Assembly: GCA_963782055.1 (NCBI GenBank)
Contig: CAWAIF010000003.1
Span: forward strand, 2,688,001 to 2,752,000
Length of the DNA: 64,000 bases
From: an uncultured delta proteobacterium
GTDB lineage: Bacteria; Myxococcota_A; Polyangia; Polyangiales; Polyangiaceae
Direction of reading: 5' to 3'
Shown here one piece after another: positions 37,102-54,786 of the stretch; position 1 is the first letter of the stretch; every line of letters starts with the position of its first letter. Under the pieces are notes generated by a model, which had not been told where the DNA came from, made no database searches, and worked only from the letters and a program-made list of their open reading frames with translations. Made by a program: the position numbers and the translations under genes.

Positions 37102-37515
37102 CTACTCCTGGTCTGGGAACACCTCGATCGCGAGACGTACGCCAAGGCGAGCCATTTCCGTCATGCAAGCATTCGAAATGATGAACCCCGCATTCTCGCG
37201 CCCAACCAACCCCAGGTAAAGCTCGCAACTGCCACCGGTCTCTACAAAGTTGTGCAACCATTGCTCGTTCTCCCCCAGGCGACGTGTCCATTCGCCAATC
37301 AGCTGCTCCATGTCACATGGCTTGGACAGTTCGCCACACCAGTACGTTTCTCCGTATCGACCTGTCAAGGGGCGATCCTTTGGGGTTCGCCGCTCAGTTC
37401 CAGCTCTCCAAGAAAAACGAGGCTGAAGGCCGAGCCTACTTGTGACTTCTTCTGGGGCTATGCTCGGGTGCGTCAGGCGACAGGCGACGCTGTTGGGAGG
37501 GCATCTCGATATCAT
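37102..37515 (-). CDS. DUF4279-like putative immunity protein
   Basis: HPSIAPEEVTSRLGLQP..SWRAG..R.TP....L.GRY.ETYW pattern; ATGA overlap with the upstream toxin-tip ORF; more A/T-rich than host genes. Confidence 0.7.
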   Translation of the reverse strand: MISRCPPNSVACRLTHPSIAPEEVTSRLGLQPRFSWRAGTERRTPKDRPLTGRYGETYWCGELSKPCDMEQLIGEWTRRLGENEQWLHNFVETGGSCELYLGLVGRENAGFIISNACMTEMARLGVRLAIEVFPDQE

Positions 37516-37753: not shown

Positions 37754-37804
37754 GCGCATAGGAAATCCTAGCGCGGTCGGGCGCGAAAGTTTACGAAATC
37801 CATC
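37754..37804 (-). repeat. oriIS-like 100-bp repeat R1 (left half only; interrupted)
   Basis: gcgcataggaaatcctagcgcggtcgggcgcgaaagtttacgaaatccatc, identical to the left half of R2. Confidence 0.9.
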
Positions 37805-39007
37805 TTGGACGAAGCCGCTGCGCGGCAGCGTGGCTCCGCATCAAGCACGCTGGCGAGCCGGGAGCCTCGCGAGCGTGTGCGCGCTGGCGAGTCCGCCTCG
37901 TAGCCCTCGCGTGCCGTGACGCGGGCGATCCTGCGGCGCGCGCCGCCCGCTCGTGGGCGCGCGCGGAGCCAAAGGAGGCCGCGATGGGTGCGAAGCGAAG
38001 ACTGCGGGACACGATGAGCGAGGACCTCGCGCTGCGAGGGATGAGCGCCAACACGATCGCCACGTACGTGGGTGCGTGAGGCGGTTCGCGCAGTACCACG
38101 GGCGGTCGCCGTGCGCGCTGGGGGCGGCGGAGATCCGTGCGTTCCTCTTGCACCTGGTGGCGGAGCGCAGGCTGGCGGCGCTGACGGTCAACGTGCACGC
38201 GGCCGCGCTGAGGTTTCTCTACGAGGTGACGCTGGAGCGGCCGGAGGCGACGCTGGGGGATGGCGCGCATGCGGGTGCCGATGCACGTGCCGGTGGTGCT
38301 GACGAGCGCGGAGGTGGCGCGGCTGCTCGCGGCGCTCACGAGCCACAAGCACCGGGCCCTGGTGATGCTCGCCTACGGGGCGGGGCTGCGCGTGAGCGAG
38401 GTGTGCAAGCTCCGGGTGGACGACATCGATCCGAAGCGGATGCTCCTGCACGTGCGGCACTCCGCCAGCCACGCCACCACGCGCCTCGAGACCGCTCGCC
38501 GCAGACTGGGTCCGCACGCGGCGCCCGCTGCGCGACCGGTGCGCCGTGTCGACGCCGCCGACCTGCTGCTGCGAATCGCGGGCATCGACCTGCACCGCTG
38601 CCCCGCTTGCCACACGCCTGCCCTCGTGCGTACCGCGCTGCCGGAGCCCCGAGCTCGCGACCCGCCGGGGGCCGCATGATCTCCCCGCGTCGTGCTCCAC
38701 TGCGCTCGCTCCACGAGTGCGGCCCAGGCCCCTGTCCATCCACGCCACGAAAACCCGGCCTCCGAGCACGCACGGCTGCCCGCTGCGCGCTCCGGGACGC
38801 CCGCGTCGAGCGCCGTCCCGCCGCCCGCTCCGCACCTCGCGCACCCGCGCCCGTGACCCACACGCCGCCAACTTCCCCATAGGGCTCCGAGGCCACCGCC
38901 TCGCCGCTGCCGCGCACCGGCTTCGTCCAACCGTCGATTTCGCGACCGCGCACCCGCGCCACGCGACCGGCGTCACGACCCGGCGCGCTCACGCAATCGA
39001 CTCTTAC
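37805..39007 (+). mobile_element. Internally deleted copy of the integrase + Y2-transposase element
   Basis: Near-identical to 40949-43469 except for a ~1.3-kb deletion joining int (cgtgcggcac) to late tnp (tccgccagcc) at a GCAC microhomology. int is frameshifted at G-runs ~38070 and ~38255. Both ends are intact. Confidence 0.9.
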
Positions 39008-39016
39008 TTATGGTAA

Positions 39017-39432
39017 ATGCCGCGCCGCATCATCGCTGGCGTGCGGTTCCTCGACGCGCGAGCCACGGTGGTCGGGCACTTCCCTGCTCGTCAGGAGGTG
39101 ATCGAGCTGGCCGCGGACGTCACCGTCTTCCTCCGGCGGCAGCTCAACCAATGGAAGAGCGCGCGAGGGTACGGGCGTCGCGTCCAGGGTCAGCAGGGTG
39201 AGCGGTGGGCGGCCGCGCTCGGCCTCTCCCGCGACGCCGACCTGTGCGACCGACTGGAGCGCTGGTGGGGGACGGGCGAGGTCGCGCTCCAGGAGGTGAC
39301 GCGGGACGGCGGCGCGGTGCTCAGCCCGGCCCGCTTCGACGAAGGCTTCGACGGTCGCTTCACCTTCCTTTGGACGACCAGCCAAGCCCAGCTCCAGCGC
39401 TACGCGCGTCAGCTCCAGCTCGATCCCGAGGC
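39017..39432 (+). other. Probable gene fragment of unknown function, ending at the 121-bp repeat
   Basis: Protein-like ORF (MPRRIIAGVRFLD...QLQLDPE) that reads into the repeat. Confidence 0.35.
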
Positions 39433-39553
39433 TGAGCCTCCCCGAAGACGAGGAGATGGTAGCATCGAGGGTGCGTACGGGGCCCGCGGGCGGCGCAACC
39501 GGACATGATGGATGCTAGCGAACCCAGATCGAGGGCCAATCTGGCTTATCCAC
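39433..39553 (+). repeat. 121-bp direct repeat, copy A
   Basis: tgagcctccccgaagacgaggagatggtagcatc...gagggccaatctggcttatccac; about 3 mismatches versus copy B. Confidence 0.9.
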
Positions 39554-39579
39554 TTCGCCAATGGTGAGGAGGTTTTCGC

Positions 39580-40070: not shown

Positions 40071-40191
40071 TGAGCCTTCCCGAAGACGAGGAGATGGTAG
40101 CATCGAGGGTGCGCCCGGGGCCCGCGGGCGGCGCAACCGGACATGATGGATGCTAGCGAACCCAGATCGAGGGCCAATCTGGCTTATCCAC
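40071..40191 (+). repeat. 121-bp direct repeat, copy B
   Basis: tgagccttcccgaagacgaggagatggtagcatc...gagggccaatctggcttatccac. Confidence 0.9.
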
Positions 40192-40432
40192 ATCGCGTCC
40201 TTGATCTTGGTCAGCCCCCTTCTGGGCGCACCCCATCGGGGGGCAGCGGCGCGGGTCGTCAGCGCCGCCACGGCTGTCGAAGGTGCCGCGGGGCTCGGCT
40301 CCGCGGTCCTCGACCCCGGGCACCCGGCGCGGCGGAGGCCATGACGCCCGGTCCGCGGCAGTCGACGCCCGCTGGAGGCTGGACAGCCGGCGGACACCCG
40401 TGGTTTTTTCCACGCACTTCGCGAGGTGCTCC

Positions 40433-40915
40433 GTGCACAAGCTGCTTGCAATCTCCCTGGTCGCATCGCTGGCGGCGTGCTCGGGCAGCTCGACCCCGTC
40501 CGGCTCCACGGGCTCGGCCTCGACGAGCGGCTCCGGCACCACCGGCGCGAGCTCCAGCGGCTCCACCGGCACCAGCAGCACCGGCGGGAGCGGTGGCTCC
40601 ACCGGCGGCGTGCCGCCAGGGGGCAAGCGGATCTTCCTCACCTCGTCGACCTACGAGGGCGGCGCGCTGGGCGGGGTCAGCGGCGCGGACCAGAAGTGCA
40701 CCCTCTCGGCCCAGGCCGTGGGCCTGAGCGGCACCTGGATCGCGCTCGTCTCCGGACTGGACCGCATCAGCGACGTCGGCCCCTGGTACCTGCTCGACGG
40801 CACCAAAGTCTTCAACAACAAGGCCGGGCTCTCGACCACGCCGTTCGCGGTGATCAGCATCGACGAGCGCGGCGGCGCGCACGCGGGCGACGAGCAGGCG
40901 CATAGGAAATCCTAG
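40433..40915 (+). pseudogene. DUF1554-like lipoprotein, 3'-truncated at repeat R2
   Basis: LAAC lipobox, Ser/Gly/Thr linker, KRIFLTS...GGVSGADQKC...GPWYLLDG...IDERG; the frame runs into the repeat and stops before the usual WTG half of the domain. Confidence 0.75.
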
Positions 40916-40948
40916 CGCGGTCGGGCGCGAAAGTTTACGAAATCCATC
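40898..40948 (-). repeat. oriIS-like 100-bp repeat R2, left half
   Basis: Together with 43470-43518 it reconstitutes the uninterrupted R3 sequence. Confidence 0.92.
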
Positions 40949-41128
40949 TTGGACGAAGCCGCTGCGCGGCAGCGTGGCTCCGCATCAAGCTCGCTCGCGA
41001 CCCGGGAGCCCCGCGAGCCGTGTGCGCGCTGACGAGCCCGCCTCGTAGCCCTCGCGTGCCGTGATGCGGGCGATCCTGCGGCGCGCGCCGCCCGCTCGTG
41101 GGCGCGCGCGGAGCCGAAGGAGGCCGCG

Positions 41129-41974
41129 ATGGGTGCGAAGCGAAGACTGCGGGACACGATGAGCGAGGACCTCGCGCTGCGAGGGATGAGCGCCAACACG
41201 ATCGCCACGTACGTGGGGTGCGTGCGGCGGTTCGCGCAGTACCACGGGCGGTCGCCGTGCGCGCTGGGGGCGGCGGAGATCCGGACGTTCCTTTTGCACC
41301 TGGTGGCGGAGCGCAGGCTGGCGGCGCTGACGGTCAACGTGCACGCGGCCGCGCTGAGGTTTCTCTACGAGGTGACGCTGGAGCGGCCGGAGGCGACGCT
41401 GGGGATGGCGCGCATGCGGGTGCCGATGCACGTGCCGGTGGTGCTGACGAGCGCGGAGGTGGCGCGGCTGCTCGCGTCGCTCACGAGCCACAAGCACCGG
41501 GCCCTGGTGATGCTCGCCTACGGGGCGGGGCTGCGCGTGAGCGAGGTGTGCAAGCTCCGGGTGGACGACATCGATCCGAAGCGGATGCTCCTGCACGTGC
41601 GGCACACCAAGCGCGGGCGTGAGCGCTACGTGATGCTCAGCGCGAGGCTGCTGGCGACGCTGCGCGCGTACTGGAAGGCGTCACGACCCGCAGGACCGCA
41701 ACTGTTTCCGGGGCGCGTGCCCGGGACGCTCCTCACGCGCGCGGCCGTCCACCGGGCGATCCTCAAGGCGGCGCGGCGCGCGGGCATCACCCGGCGCGTG
41801 TCGCCGCACACGCTGCGCCACAGCTTCGCCACGCACCTGCTCGACGCAGGGACCGACCTTCGCACGTTGCAGGTCTTGCTCGGGCACGCGTCGCTCAGGA
41901 GCACGATGGCCTACCTGCACGTGAGCACCGCCCGCGTGCAGTCGATTCAGAGCCCCCTCGACGCGCTGCCCTGA
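41129..41974 (+). CDS. Tyrosine recombinase (N-terminal SAM-like + XerD-like catalytic domain)
   Basis: GLRVSE (R), TKRGRER (K), HTLRHSFATH (HxxR), LLGH, STMAY (Y); AAGGAGG RBS. Confidence 0.95.
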   Translation: MGAKRRLRDTMSEDLALRGMSANTIATYVGCVRRFAQYHGRSPCALGAAEIRTFLLHLVAERRLAALTVNVHAAALRFLYEVTLERPEATLGMARMRVPMHVPVVLTSAEVARLLASLTSHKHRALVMLAYGAGLRVSEVCKLRVDDIDPKRMLLHVRHTKRGRERYVMLSARLLATLRAYWKASRPAGPQLFPGRVPGTLLTRAAVHRAILKAARRAGITRRVSPHTLRHSFATHLLDAGTDLRTLQVLLGHASLRSTMAYLHVSTARVQSIQSPLDALP

Positions 41975-41980
41975 GCCCCG

Positions 41981-43141
41981 ATGCACCCGTCGTGTGCGCC
42001 CGCGCGCACGCGCGCGGCGCCCATCGAGCTCGCGGACGTGGTGCGCGCCCACGGCGAGGCCTTCGCCGGCGGCCGCGTGCTGCGTCCCGAGGAGCGGTCG
42101 GCGCTGCGGGCGATCGAGCGATGCCGGACCGCCGCGCTGGGCGGACATCTGGACGTGTGCACCGCGTGCGGGCTCGAGCGACCGTCGTACAACTCGTGCC
42201 GCAACCGGCACTGTCCCAAGTGCCAGTCGCTCGCGCAGGCGCGGTGGGTCGCCACGCGGCTCGAGCGCATTCTGCCCGTGCACTACTTCCACGTCGTCTT
42301 CACGCTCCCCGCCGAGCTGCGCGCCGTCGCGCGGCGCTCGCGCGCGCGGGTCTTCGACATGCTCTTCGCGAGCGCGGCCGACACGCTGGCCACCCTCGCG
42401 CGGGATCCGAAGTGGCTCGGCGCCGAGCTCGGCGTCACGATGGTCCTGCACACCTGGACGCGCGCGCTGCTCTTCCACCCCCACGTGCACGCCATCGTCA
42501 CCGGCGGCGGACTCACCGGCGACGCCGCGCGCTGGGTGCGCGCGCGCCGTCGCTTCCTCTTCCCCGTGCGCGTGATGGGCGCGCTCTTTCGCGGCAAGAT
42601 GCTCGCCGCTCTCGAGCGCGCCCACGCGCGCGGCCTCGTCGACCTGGGCGGCGTCGACCTGCTGGCGCTCCGACGCAAGGCCTGGGTCGTCTACGCCAAG
42701 CGACCCTTTGGCGGCCCCGCTCAGGTCATCCGCTACCTCGGTCGCTACACGCACCGCGTCGGCATCTCCAACCACCGCTTCGTCTCGATGGGCGAGCGCG
42801 GCGTCACCTTCCGCACCAGAGACGGCAAGTCGGTCACCGTCCCGGCCGAGGAGCTGCTCGCGCGCTTCGTCCAGCACGTGCTGCCGCGCGGCTTCGTCAA
42901 GATCCGCCACTACGGCCTGCACTCCGCCAGCCACGCCACCACGCGCCTCGAGACCGCACGCCGCAGACTGGGTCCGCACGCGGCGCCCGCTGCGCGACCG
43001 GTGCGCCGTGCCGACGCCGCCGACCTGCTGCTGCGAATCGCGGGCATCGACCTGCGCCGCTGCCCCGCTTGCCACACGCCTGCCCTCGTGCGCACCGCGC
43101 TGCCGGAGCCCCGAGCTCGCGACCCGCCGGGGGCCGCATGA
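41981..43141 (+). CDS. IS91-family Y2 HUH transposase with N-terminal Zn finger
   Basis: CRTAALGG..C..C...YNSCRNRHCPKC; HPHVH HUH motif; YLGRYTH (Y-x3-Y); GFVKIRHYG. Confidence 0.95.
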   Translation: MHPSCAPARTRAAPIELADVVRAHGEAFAGGRVLRPEERSALRAIERCRTAALGGHLDVCTACGLERPSYNSCRNRHCPKCQSLAQARWVATRLERILPVHYFHVVFTLPAELRAVARRSRARVFDMLFASAADTLATLARDPKWLGAELGVTMVLHTWTRALLFHPHVHAIVTGGGLTGDAARWVRARRRFLFPVRVMGALFRGKMLAALERAHARGLVDLGGVDLLALRRKAWVVYAKRPFGGPAQVIRYLGRYTHRVGISNHRFVSMGERGVTFRTRDGKSVTVPAEELLARFVQHVLPRGFVKIRHYGLHSASHATTRLETARRRLGPHAAPAARPVRRADAADLLLRIAGIDLRRCPACHTPALVRTALPEPRARDPPGAA

Positions 43142-43386
43142 TCTCCCCGCGTCGTGTTCCACTGCGCTCGCTCCACGAGTGCGGCGCAGGCCCCTGTCCA
43201 TCCGCGCCACGAAAACCCGCCCTCCGAGCACGCACGGCTGCCCGCTGCGCGCTCCGGGACGCCCGCGTCGAGCGCCGTCCCGCCGCCCGCTCCGCACCTC
43301 GCGCACCCGCACACGTGACCCACACGCCGCCAACTTCCCCATAGGGCTCCGAGGCCACCGCCTCGCCGCTGCCGCGCACCGGCTTC

Positions 43387-43475
43387 GTCCAACCGTCGAT
43401 TTCGCGACCGCGCACCCGCGCCACGCGACCGCCGCCGCGACCCGGCGCGCTCACGCAATCGACTCTTACTTATGC
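43387..43475 (+). other. attC-like imperfect hairpin recombination site
   Basis: GTCCAAC (RYYYAAC), then gtcgatttcgcgaccgcgc ... gcgcgctcacgcaatcgac (inverted pair), then C|TTATGC. Same structure at 38925-39013. Confidence 0.6.
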
Positions 43476-43518
43476 GAAGTGGGGCCGTCCGGTGTCACTG
43501 GAAGGACGGACCAGGGTG
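43470..43518 (-). repeat. oriIS-like 100-bp repeat R2, right half
   Basis: ttatgcgaagtggggccgtccggtgtcactggaaggacggaccagggtg. Confidence 0.92.
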
Positions 43519-44867: not shown

Positions 44868-46271
44868 GTGCAGCTCGGGGGCGTGGCCGGCGCGCCGTTC
44901 GTCTACGAGAGGCGACACCCCGAGGGCACCACGCTCTACGCGGTGGTGCGCGACAACGTCGAGACCCTCTACGCCGCGGTCGCCGAGAGCGGCCTCACGC
45001 TGCCCGCCTTCGTGCGCCAGGAGCTGGAGGGCTACCTGGACTGCGGCCTTCTCTGCCGGGGCTTCGCGCACCTCAAGTGCGAGGAGTGCGGCGAGCGGCG
45101 CGTTGTCGCCTTCGCGTGCAAGGGCCGGGGATTCTGCCCGTCGTGCATGGGGCGGCGCATGGCGCAGACGGCGGCCAACCTCATGGAGAGCGTGCTGCCG
45201 GAGGCCCCGCTGCGGCAGTGGGTGCTCACCATGCCGCACGCCATCCGGCATCGCCTCGCGTACAACGCCCCGCTGCTCGGCAAGGTGACGCGCGCCTTCC
45301 TCGCGACGGTGGTTGCATTCTACAAGAAGCGGGCGGGCGCGAGCGGCTGCGTCGCCGTCGTGCAGCGCACCTCGAGCGATCTCAAGCTCAACCCGCACGT
45401 GCACGCGGTGTTCCTGGACGGCGGGTACGTCGAGGTGGACGGCGAGCCGCGCTTCCGCGCCCTCGGCCACCTGCGAGGTAGCGAGGTCGCCGAGGTGCTC
45501 GCGAGGGCGCGCCGCCGCATCGAGCGGCTGCTCGCCCGCGCCCAGGAGCGTGCCGACGACGAGGACGTGCAGCCGATGCTCACCAGCGTGCGCGGCCACC
45601 CGCCCGCCGGCCCCGCGCTCCGCCGCGGCGCGACCTTCGGGGTGGGCTCCTCGCGCGCCGAGCTCTGCGCCCAGGACGAGGGCTTCAACCTGCACGCCGC
45701 CACCCGCGCCGGCGCCCTCGACGCCGCCGGGCGCGAGGCCCTCTTGCGCTACATCCTGCGTCCCCCCGTCGCCCAGGAGCGCATCGTCGCGGGACCGGAC
45801 AACCTGGTGCGCATCGCGCTCAAGAAGCCCTTCTCCGACGGCACCGTCGCCGTCGACATGGACCCCCTCTCGCTCCTCTTACGCCTCTGCGCCGCCGTCC
45901 CCGCGCCGCGTTTTCATACTGTCCGCTACGCCGGCGTGCTCGCGTCCGCCAGCAAGGTGCGCCCCAAGATCGTCCGCCGTCCACCCGACCCGGCGACGGC
46001 GACAGAGCACGACGACAAGCCGAAGCGCTCGCGCTACTGGCCGTGGGCGGAGCTCATGGCCCGGACGTTCGCGGTGGACGTGCAGAGGTGCCCGAAGTGC
46101 GAGGGCCGCATGAAGCTCGTGGCGATGGTGCAGGAGCCGCGCGGGATCAAGAGGTTCCTCGAGGGGCTCGGCGAGCCGCACGAGGTCCCGCCGCGCGCAC
46201 CGGCCCGCGCTCCTCCCTATTATCGCAGCGCCGTCATCCGCCGGATCGCCGGCGCCATCGTCGCCGCCTGA
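44868..46271 (+). CDS. IS91/ISCR-like rolling-circle transposase, apparently intact
   Basis: YERRHPEGT, CGLLCRGF..C..C...FACKGRGFCPSC, RQWVLT, NPHVH HUH motif, GFNLHA, LLRYILRP, RFHTVRYAG. Confidence 0.92.
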   Translation: MQLGGVAGAPFVYERRHPEGTTLYAVVRDNVETLYAAVAESGLTLPAFVRQELEGYLDCGLLCRGFAHLKCEECGERRVVAFACKGRGFCPSCMGRRMAQTAANLMESVLPEAPLRQWVLTMPHAIRHRLAYNAPLLGKVTRAFLATVVAFYKKRAGASGCVAVVQRTSSDLKLNPHVHAVFLDGGYVEVDGEPRFRALGHLRGSEVAEVLARARRRIERLLARAQERADDEDVQPMLTSVRGHPPAGPALRRGATFGVGSSRAELCAQDEGFNLHAATRAGALDAAGREALLRYILRPPVAQERIVAGPDNLVRIALKKPFSDGTVAVDMDPLSLLLRLCAAVPAPRFHTVRYAGVLASASKVRPKIVRRPPDPATATEHDDKPKRSRYWPWAELMARTFAVDVQRCPKCEGRMKLVAMVQEPRGIKRFLEGLGEPHEVPPRAPARAPPYYRSAVIRRIAGAIVAA

Positions 46272-46440
46272 CGCACTGCCCGGGCAGGCACCGGTGCGCG
46301 CGGGGACCGAAAATCAGCCGGCAAATGGCACCATCGAACCGCGGCGACCACGATGGGGACGTTCGGGCGCAGCAACATCACGCCGCCAGGACCGCCCCGA
46401 AGGGGCGCGGCTCGTGGAAAACCGCGCTTGAATCCCGTAC

Positions 46441-46505
46441 GCTCTCGCTGCTCGCAGGCACCGGCGTGCCTCGGTCTCGTCCTCGATCTTCCGTGCGCTC
46501 GCCAC
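46441..46505 (-). pseudogene. 5' stub of a small IS66-type OrfA-like gene cut by the IS91-like ori end
   Basis: GGAGGTGA RBS, GTG start, ASARKIEDETEARRCLRAARA, then the element junction. Confidence 0.4.
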
Positions 46506-50675: not shown

Positions 50676-50775
50676 GCGCATAGGAAATCCTAGCGCGGTC
50701 GGGCGCGAAAGTTTACGGAATCCATCTTATGCGAAGTGGGGCCGTCCGGTGTCACTAGAAGGACGGACCAGGGTG
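50676..50775 (-). repeat. oriIS-like 100-bp repeat R3 (uninterrupted, empty target site)
   Basis: gcgcataggaaatcctagcgcggtcgggcgcgaaagtttacggaatccatcttatgcgaagtggggccgtccggtgtcactagaaggacggaccagggtg. Confidence 0.93.
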
Positions 50776-53139: not shown

Positions 53140-53239
53140 GCGCATAGGAAATGCTAGCGCGGTCGGGCGCGAAAGTTTACGAAATCCATCTCATGCGAAG
53201 TGGGGCCGTCCGGTGTCACTGGAAGGACGGACCAGGGTG
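53140..53239 (-). repeat. oriIS-like 100-bp repeat R4, native position 38 bp downstream of the IS91-like transposase
   Basis: Same sequence as R3 with a few substitutions (aatgctagc, catctcatgcg). The minus strand ends ...TTTCCTATGC, resembling IS91/ISCR oriIS. Confidence 0.92.
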
Positions 53240-53277
53240 AGCACGCGCTAGGCGGACGGGCGCGCTGCCGCGCGTGG

Positions 53278-54786
53278 TCAGGCGGCGGGGGGGGCGTCTG
53301 CGGCGAGGTCGAGGAGGTCGGTCGGATCGCGGGCGCGGGCAGGTGCGGGGGCTTCGGCGGGGAGGTCGAGAGCGCGGAGGATGCGGACCACGGCGGCGTC
53401 GTCGGTGATGACGGCGAGGGGACGGAGGCGGCCCCCGCAGGTCGGGCACTGGAGCACGTCGATCTCGAAGGTGCGGCGGAGCAGGCGCGGCCAGTCGATG
53501 CGGGATGTCGCTGCGTAGAGAAGGCCGCGGCGAAGGCGCTCCCAGTGGCCCACGGCGACGACGTTGGGTGCGAGACGGCGCACCTGGAGGTCTGCGGCGG
53601 CCGCGGGTGCGGCGGTCTCGGGCGCGGGTGGCGGGACTGGGAGGGGGAGGGCGAGCTGGCCCGCGGGCGGCGCGCTCGTGGTGCTGGCCGCCCCCGCGGG
53701 ATCGCGGCGCACGGGGTCGGGCCTCTCTGCCGCATGTGTGGTGTCGCGATGCGCCCGCCTCTCGATGGGCTGCCCGGGTTTCGCGGGGACGAGGGGGCGC
53801 GAAGGACGCGGAGGCCCGCAGGACGGGGCGGACGGCTCACGCGGCCTGGGGACCACGAGCTTTCGCCACGACAATCGGGGGGCGAGGACACCGTGGTAGC
53901 GGACAAGTGGGTAGCGCGGCGGCGGGACGAGCGCGGCGACGCGGGCGAGGAGCTCCACCGGAGTGAAGATCATGTGCTTCGCCTTGCCCGCGCGCGGCTG
54001 CTTGACGCGGTAGGCGACGCGGCCGTCGCGCAGGAGGCGTAGGCGCGAGAGGGCGAGCGCGGGGCGCAGGGCGTAGCGGCAGAGGCGCTCGCGGGCGAGA
54101 TCGTCCCGGACGCGGACGCCGGCGTGGAGGTTGAAGCCGGTGTCCTCCACCGCGCGGTGAGCCATGGCGGGGGCGGCTGCGTCGTCGTCGTCGTCGCCGC
54201 CGGGGTCGATCGCGAGCTTCAGCACCTTCGGGCGCTGCATCGCGAGAGCCACGCAGGCGTCGAGGGCGCTCGGCTCGACGTCGAGGTCCACCGGATCCTC
54301 GGAGAGGTGACCGTGGCGGCGGAGCCACGCGATGGCGCGACGGCTGACGGCGGTGACGAGCTGCTGCAGCTCGGCGCGGGTGGGCGCCGGCAACGGCACG
54401 AAGCCGAGGGCGCCGCTGGCCGCGTCCTCGAAGCCGACGGCGCGGGCGCGCCGGCGGTGGCTGGCGAAGATGGCGTCGGCGAAGATGCGCGCGAGCGCGC
54501 GCAGCACCACAGGGTCGAAGGCGGCGAGGCGGCGGAGCTCGTACGGCAGCGAGAGGACGTACTGGCGGAGGGGGACGTCCGGGAGCACGCGGTCGACCAG
54601 GTGGGCGGCGGTGTTCGCCATGCGACGGCCGGCGCAGCTCGGGCAGACGCTGCGGCCCTGCAGGAGAAGGCGACGAGCAGATCGTGGCCGCAGGTGTCGC
54701 ACCGGGCGCGGAGGAAGCCGTGGCGGAAGACGCCGCACCTCCACCCTTGGGGCGGCCGGGTGGCCCCGGAGAGCCAGGCAGGACAC
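53278..54786 (-). pseudogene. Decayed IS91/ISCR-like transposase
   Basis: CGVFRHGF..RC..CG....VAFSC | frameshift | GRSVCPSC..RMANTAA..RQYVLS, GFNLHA, RLCRYALRP, VRYHGVLAP. The HUH segment and most of the N-terminus are missing. Confidence 0.88.

Follow-up and report, generated by a model that had tools for sequence, protein, structure and literature searches.

What kind of mobile element carries both a tyrosine recombinase and a rolling-circle enzyme, and which of the two moves it? The question is raised by an element in a 64 000-nucleotide stretch of DNA from an uncultured delta proteobacterium (G000:C3:2688001-2752000, where G000 is our label for its own genome), referred to here as the window. 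The element would usually be filed as an IS91 transposon; it is built like an integron gene cassette with its own recombinase and rolling-circle enzyme. Filled and empty target sites were compared, which revealed an insertion of approximately 2.5 kb without target duplication, and because the empty sites fix them, the boundaries are 40949-43469. An earlier note on this DNA had correctly placed the left end, TTGGAC, at 40949, while its right end, 43475, included 6 bp of target. Element and target both have TT at the junction, which leaves room for a cut as much as two bases deeper in the element. Its parts, in window positions, are listed here.

40949-40974, plus strand: left arm, with an 11-bp core at 40949-40959 and the integration point at or within the first TT (from the inverted match and the filled and empty sites)
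41129-41974, plus strand: tyrosine recombinase of 281 aa (PF13495 and PF00589) with R136, K161, H227, R230, H253 and Y262, lacking the I2 insertion
41981-43141, plus strand: IS91-type Y2/HUH enzyme of 386 aa (PF14319 and PF04986) with H168, H170, Y252 and Y256
43332-43344, plus strand: internal oriIS-like motif, a putative rolling-circle origin
43367-43392, minus strand: internal inverted copy of the left arm (25/26)
43393-43469, minus strand: hairpin (inner stem from 43395 to 43463) with an asymmetric spacer reaching the right boundary

As the earlier note had described, the 26-bp left end recurs inverted (40949-40974 and 43367-43392 pair at 96%), and the oriIS-like motif is internal, 125 bp from the element end. 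No match to a sigma-70 promoter was found 5' of the recombinase gene, and an Rfam scan of window positions 30000-60000 yielded no relevant match.

The target is a 100-bp repeat, which the element halves at a single position, between any base and TT; this repeat, its resemblance to dif and the further copies of the element go beyond the earlier note. This repeat is the last 100 bp, at the origin end, of another ISCR-type element that has no recombinase. The window holds the following copies.

37754-39018, plus strand: a second, internally deleted element copy (37805-39007) behind the same left half; its right end abuts a different, XerD-arm-like 11-mer (39008-39018)
40898-40948, minus strand: left half of the target, on the origin side of the ISCR 100-bp end, with a XerD-like arm (40932-40942) and a 6-bp spacer (40943-40948)
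43470-43518, minus strand: other half of the target, starting with a XerC-like arm (43470-43480)
50676-50775, minus strand: empty solo copy of the 100-bp repeat
53140-54786, minus strand: empty repeat (53140-53239) attached to the 3' end of a broken ISCR-type transposase gene, which anchors the array in the window

Within the repeat is an 11-6-11 site that shares 19 of 22 arm bases with the host dif candidate (3/22 differ), and the element lies at the border of the arm corresponding to XerC; which dif arm belongs to XerC and which to XerD is our assumption. A dif-type pattern found one site in G000 at up to one mismatch, 43 kb from the cumulative GC skew maximum. With up to two mismatches it found 19 sites in G000, 18 of them repeat copies, and was present in 32 of 40 relatives, as a single site in 29 of these. 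The chromosomal dif candidate, a single site, is empty of the element. Insertion is thus on the XerC side of a dif-type site, as in the integrative elements that exploit XerCD (IMEX), for which an 11-6-11 layout and XerC-side insertion are described (PMC9226527; here and below, papers are cited from excerpts), at a look-alike instead of chromosomal dif. Compared directly, the element's attachment arm matches the XerC-side arm at 6/11 and the XerD-side arm at 3/11 bases, while the dif-like arm of the ISCR end has 7/11 bases in common with the element arm. Among ISCR relatives of the same order, a site with up to 8 mismatches lies 3' of the gene in 9 of 25 loci versus 2 of 146 control windows (5 of 30 loci were dropped as too short; one of the nine is G000 and two are near-identical), so most relatives have no dif-like site. 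Two other views of the target were rejected: the repeat is not an attC, being the end of an ISCR with poor folding (z −1.4), and the two halves with the element are not one transposon with an excisable core, since together they form a recombinase-less ISCR end that varies independently of the element. A double-stranded, dif-like target in an ISCR end is closer to CTXphi/attI logic than to the attC-hairpin picture.

Repeats cluster on C3 of G000 at 2.72-2.74, 4.41-4.49, 5.18-5.27 and 6.17-6.20 Mb and, in the window, at positions 37754, 40898, 50676 and 53140. The clusters are mostly co-oriented, with copies 0.1-12 kb apart, and three are anchored at one end by a repeat still joined to its ISCR transposase gene. 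The flanks are arbitrary cut points, almost always with a purine at the joint (35/38 left, 31/32 right). What lies between the repeats has the look of captured DNA fragments, and oriIS copies in succession are known to capture the DNA between them (PMC12772301). Host XerCD might shuffle segments between these dif look-alikes. Among 38 x 35 flank pairs there is a single real join, not enough to demonstrate shuffling. Four genomes of the same order (G038, G170, G178 and G156; loci L143-L147) likewise have ISCR 3' ends, 40-1300 bp long, repeated in local clusters. Elsewhere in the window, a second ISCR-type transposase (44868-46442) has its own ori-like end resembling that of the repeat, with no dif look-alike within 6 mismatches at this end. 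Positions 37102-37515 are a low-GC DUF4279 gene, 40439-40915 a DUF1554-like gene with a frame that runs into the repeat and stops there, and 39431-39556 and 40071-40194 a 126-bp direct repeat (97%) around a DMP19-like gene, with just these two copies in the genome.

The earlier note had proposed that circularization would extend the hairpin at the right end, as in a cassette attC. Folding of both strands bears out the first part: the joined ends gave −66.3 kcal/mol (z −9.0) on the bottom strand and −54.6 kcal/mol (z −6.2) on the top strand, with 0/200 shuffles as good in either case, versus z −0.5 for the integrated right end alone. On the double-stranded junction, the second arm is approximately 77 bp away, and a spacing of 6-7 nt is reached only when folded. 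A hairpin site made by joining the ends, with the bottom strand favoured, is a feature that the element shares with integron cassettes. The hairpin does not look like a canonical attC: its spacer is longer on one side by 3-5 bases (5 in most cases), and its core lacks the G of GTTRRRY. There is no integron here. The bottom strand was also the more stable in 28/28 family junctions, a bias that is partly compositional (136/222 control windows, 57/74 in the tail); the z-scores of the relatives are inflated, as these loci were selected on arms and stems. The circle junction itself has 0 copies in this assembly, and no end-to-start joint was seen in four low-depth soil contig sets from one study, which barely cover the element ends and are uninformative on this point.

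Both enzymes are intact. The recombinase has all six catalytic residues and, as the earlier note suspected, lacks the I2 insertion characteristic of integron integrases: the relevant stretch has 26 residues versus 67 in VchIntIA (2a3v), 41 fewer. Its score against the integron integrase model TIGR02249, 198.9 bits, is below the 265 cut-off. A tree of 19 element recombinases, one IntI and the host XerC/XerD groups IntI with the element recombinases apart from Xer (100/99), with IntI on a long branch and its placement among them without resolution. The Y2 protein scores 389.7 bits against the IS91 transposase model NF033538 (cut-off 125) and has the HUH motif and zinc finger of the IS91 family (PF04986 and PF14319). 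A genome-wide profile search of G000 revealed no integron integrase above cut-off; host XerD is above its cut-off and a XerC-like gene just below.

To see how general this arrangement is, we consider the best 79 of 596 related stretches, loci that are kin and not independent. Of the Y2 matches that leave space for flanks, the three closest are in assemblies of delta proteobacteria and myxobacteria. In 75/79 loci a recombinase gene lies directly upstream of the Y2 gene. All six catalytic residues are invariant in 60/60 uninterrupted family recombinases (15/75 were partial or broken and left out), the I2 position spans 34-39 residues in 61/61 aligned proteins, and the HUH motif and both tyrosines are invariant in 77/77 Y2 proteins (2/79 dropped). 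A matrix seeded from left ends scored above the 95th control percentile at 56/67 left ends, which is circular, and at 50/77 downstream inverted positions, both counts including the window. An ori-like motif lies within 60 nt before the inverted arm in 49/50 loci versus 21/1050 control windows, a hairpin directly after the arm in 36/48 versus 70/500 controls, and TT at the five-base spacer excess after the hairpin in 19/36. The arm consensus is common to loci from Bacillota, Bacteroidota, Acidobacteriota and Pseudomonadota with varied targets. In two loci, L018 and L067, the element is dimerized head to tail and the predicted junction is present (100% over 2637 nt and 99.9% over 2511 nt); both are metagenome assemblies, and only 40 loci exceed 6 kb. 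No further ISCR-type gene was found in the flanks of the 79 loci, and the ISCR target is therefore lineage-limited. One locus, L072, has a true integron integrase at 580-1560 (TIGR02249, 425 bits), 1.4 kb upstream of the family member on the same strand.

Targets could be reconstructed for 28 loci with both arms and a strong stem. Of these, 13 have AA six bases before the crossover, versus a 7% background. At least 1 nt of spacer microhomology occurs in 15/28 in a fixed register (6/2000 shuffles as high) and in 19/28 in the best register (0/2000 as high), versus approximately 8 in shuffles. The arm is invariant from position 3. On the bottom strand this stretch has GTYC at its end, which resembles the terIS cut sites of the IS91 family (GTTC or CTCG). 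Positions 1-2 differ in two otherwise identical pairs (L049/L050 and L041/L043, identical over the next 60 nt). When these two positions are compared with the internal arm, the left end alone matches in 6 loci, the right flank alone in 0, both in 17 and neither in 5, a result that leans towards the outer boundary.

The host genome offers a more direct view of insertion. G000 contains 14 left and 13 right element ends. Scanning for the left-arm motif gave 40 hits, of which 23 are empty, 11 have the element directly next to them and 6 are other cases, including one empty form of a divergent allele and two copies of the element in which a group II intron follows the first T. The insertion point is single in the 11 direct and 2 intron-interrupted cases. 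The earlier note had expected insertions to share a boundary between C and TT, and no exception was found in this genome. Right ends abut TTAT in 13/13 (one with an extra T), and not the CTTG, GTTC or GTCC expected of an IS91 target. At least six target alleles contain left ends that are identical over 180 nt; one of these alleles has another spacer and also exists in empty form. A 79%-identical relative uses the same insertion point. Four copies share one 199-bp deletion through the Y2 tyrosines in four different contexts; some copies probably spread later as passengers of ISCR ends, and the copy number in G000 may in part be due to such passive spread or to gene conversion. Two partial copies stop 10-14 bp before the ori motif, one of them at an IS, which is uninformative on truncation at the origin. 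No other cassette with the element's arms and hairpin was found outside element copies in G000.

Close relatives follow the same pattern. In G004, of the same genus, four left ends with 77% identity are located approximately 51-56 bp away from ori-like ends. An ISCR 3' end there has an empty site in which the arms are the same and the spacer differs. In G155, an element-type right end occupies the same target position. In G174 (L140 1869-2200), an ISCR end carries, in opposite orientation, an approximately 300-bp derivative that has both arms and the hairpin but neither genes nor ori motif and might be a proto-cassette. At L093 near 4850 (G004 C8), the right end is separated from the target arm by 11 extra bases, which include the 6-bp spacer of other G004 sites and may have been carried over from an earlier target.

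Other mobile DNA has entered these sites too. Group II introns (TIGR04416 above cut-off) lie between the first two Ts of the left arm at C3 2272361, 5216047 and 6186555, with IS4 copies inside two of the three. They are reminiscent of the group IIC introns that target attC sites. A 1.5-kb candidate 'passenger cassette' in an empty site (C3 4450609-4452133) was rejected as an ordinary IS, which we take to be IS66-like; it has terminal inverted repeats, many dispersed copies and an 8-bp duplication of the start of the XerC-like arm.

The element ends, the target, the hairpin formed on joining the ends and two intact enzymes are all seen directly in the sequence. From these we consider it moderately probable that the Y2 protein makes single-stranded circles whose folded end is integrated by the element's own recombinase, in the manner of CTXphi and attC. 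A form with joined ends would arise by recombinase excision or as a tandem dimer; this must come first, because copying an integrated monomer from the internal origin would miss the last 125 bp. The Y2/HUH enzyme would then nick the internal origin and act as a rolling-circle Rep, releasing bottom-strand single-stranded circles. Acting on a circle or dimer, the same enzyme could produce strands of unit length, as is known for CTXphi and its tandem prophages (PMC3442271). For IS91, insertion starts exclusively from single-stranded circles of the bottom strand (PMC13181058), which is the strand that folds better in the family junctions. On folding of the junction, the two arms would form one double-stranded recombinase site, and the I2-less recombinase may let this hairpin exchange a single strand pair with a double-stranded 11-6-11 site, with replication completing the insertion. 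In this lineage the partner would be the dif look-alike that an unrelated ISCR element has in its origin end. The spacers of the element and its target agree at just 3/6 bases, as would suit a single strand exchange that replication resolves, the course described for attC x attI (PMC4792948). The same work describes I2 as needed for attC recognition, which counts against a recombinase lacking it; monomer excision is also unexplained, because the integrated right end folds poorly. The earlier note's reading of Rep and recombinase acting together is in part supported, by the comparative evidence of insertions before TT without duplication, the hairpin confined to the junction, the internal origin, the invariant residues and the dimers, while its cassette picture gives way to a double-stranded target.

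An unlikely alternative is IS91-type transposition, in which Y2 would perform the strand transfers and make its cut behind the GTYC that lies two bases in from the left end, with the hairpin as terminator or target guide and the recombinase as an accessory resolvase. Y2 is a full IS91-family enzyme, IS801 and IS1294 cut terIS at 5'-GTTC in a family without target duplication (PMC13181058), the dimers could come from rolling-circle read-through, and variation in arm positions 1-2, even between identical copies, is as this explanation would have it. Yet where flanks differ, these positions follow the internal arm on the left only in 6/28 loci and on the right only in none, the ori-like motif is internal in nearly every locus with an inverted arm, the right-end flank is not that of an IS91 target, targets tend to AA-6-TT symmetry, and the G174 mini-element at an ISCR end has neither genes nor origin. 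If instead the recombinase excised and integrated conventional double-stranded sites, Y2 would only amplify the circle or expose its ends, and the hairpin would serve Y2 or second-strand priming and not be a substrate. The missing I2 domain, the conservation of both enzymes and the ancestral activity that integron integrases keep on double-stranded sites (PMC4792948) suit this explanation, which we nonetheless judge quite unlikely: a 3/6 spacer match, absent at the first base in the divergent allele, is too little for a second exchange, and the arms are correctly spaced only upon folding.

Exploitation of host XerC/XerD, as by CTXphi, with the element's recombinase reserved for excision or another step, is distinctly improbable. 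It draws on the closeness of the target to the dif candidate, the junction at the XerC-arm border, the host XerD and near-threshold XerC genes, and the integration of folded CTXphi by XerC alone (PMC3442271). Set against this, the folded end has no XerD-like arm, the same arm consensus serves loci with varied targets in four phyla, it is the XerD side that the G174 mini-element and one window copy adjoin, and chromosomal dif is empty (weak evidence, from one site).

How does the element, on the reading that we favour, compare with known systems? Closest are the recombinase-bearing IS91-family elements, with the same gene pair and the recombinase upstream. ISfinder entries such as ISWz1 and ISAzo26 are of this type, and, as the earlier note stated, the pair is already catalogued: plasmid records annotate 'IS91 family transposase' beside 'site-specific integrase'. 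IS91-linked recombinases were placed in an integron-like subgroup without the IntI insertion (bioRxiv 10.1101/542381), while excerpts of the journal version (PMC8138268) do not name IS91. ISWz1 is treated as an IS91 element flanking resistance regions, with circles and undefined ends (PMC11322121, PMC9751785); in these excerpts, ends, target and mechanism are left undefined, whereas here there are an internal ori-like motif and recombinase-type arms. With IS91, IS801, IS1294 and ISCR the element shares a Y2/HUH enzyme with zinc finger, the lack of target duplication and a bottom-strand circle (PMC13181058), here a predicted one. It differs from them in its own recombinase, one site-specific target, no adjoining CTTG/GTTC and an oriIS that is not, as theirs, the element end downstream of tnpA.

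Like an integron cassette, the element has a site complete only on joining the ends, a bottom-strand hairpin, a degenerate double-stranded partner and a crossover after the first base of an N-TT core (PMC8876359); unlike one, it carries its own enzymes, without I2 or GTTRRRY and with 3-5 nt of spacer excess, in a genome with no IntI above cut-off and no other cassette with these arms. It resembles CTXphi and IMEX in its rolling-circle HUH protein, folded single-strand attachment site, XerC-side dif-type target and tandem copies (PMC3442271, PMC9226527), but encodes an intact, conserved recombinase, has no phage genes or XerD-like arm and uses dif look-alikes, where an IMEX has no integrase of its own and both XerC and XerD arms. 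Strand-biased circularizing elements (SEs) also move by tyrosine recombinases with a single-strand bias (PMC9345347) but encode no HUH enzyme, and in GIsul2/CR2-sul2 an integrase moves an ISCR-containing unit (PMC9376610), albeit at genomic-island att core sites. The element is a real, multi-copy mobile element that works like a hybrid of cassette and CTXphi and departs in defining features from canonical IS91 elements, integrons and IMEX.

The gene pair was catalogued before; what seems to be new here is the hairpin end, the internal origin and the dif-like target. Our literature search, to which most subscription papers and the ISfinder and TnCentral pages and preprint supplements were external, found no description of these features or of a mechanism for the family. 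We suggest tentatively, at rather less than an even chance, that the recombinase–Y2 family is no insertion-sequence variant and is a widespread class of autonomous single-strand integrative elements, pairing a Rep with an I2-less integrase that would insert a folded end into dif-, attI- or attC-like sites. It could then be an extant link between Xer/CTXphi chemistry and integrons, with geneless derivatives from which cassettes might arise, and in this genome a parasite of dif look-alikes scattered into arrays by ISCR ends. The origin of integrons poses a chicken-and-egg problem, in that attC hairpins and the I2 domain would each have had to evolve without the other, and CTXphi, having no integrase, is not a complete system (PMC4792948). 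If this is correct, a close, I2-less IntI relative, integrating the hairpin of its own element with supply from that element's rolling-circle enzyme, would be a complete intermediate, and a large family now annotated as IS91 would be reclassified. The host shows a three-layer arrangement of its own dif, an ISCR end imitating dif and an element homing to the imitation.
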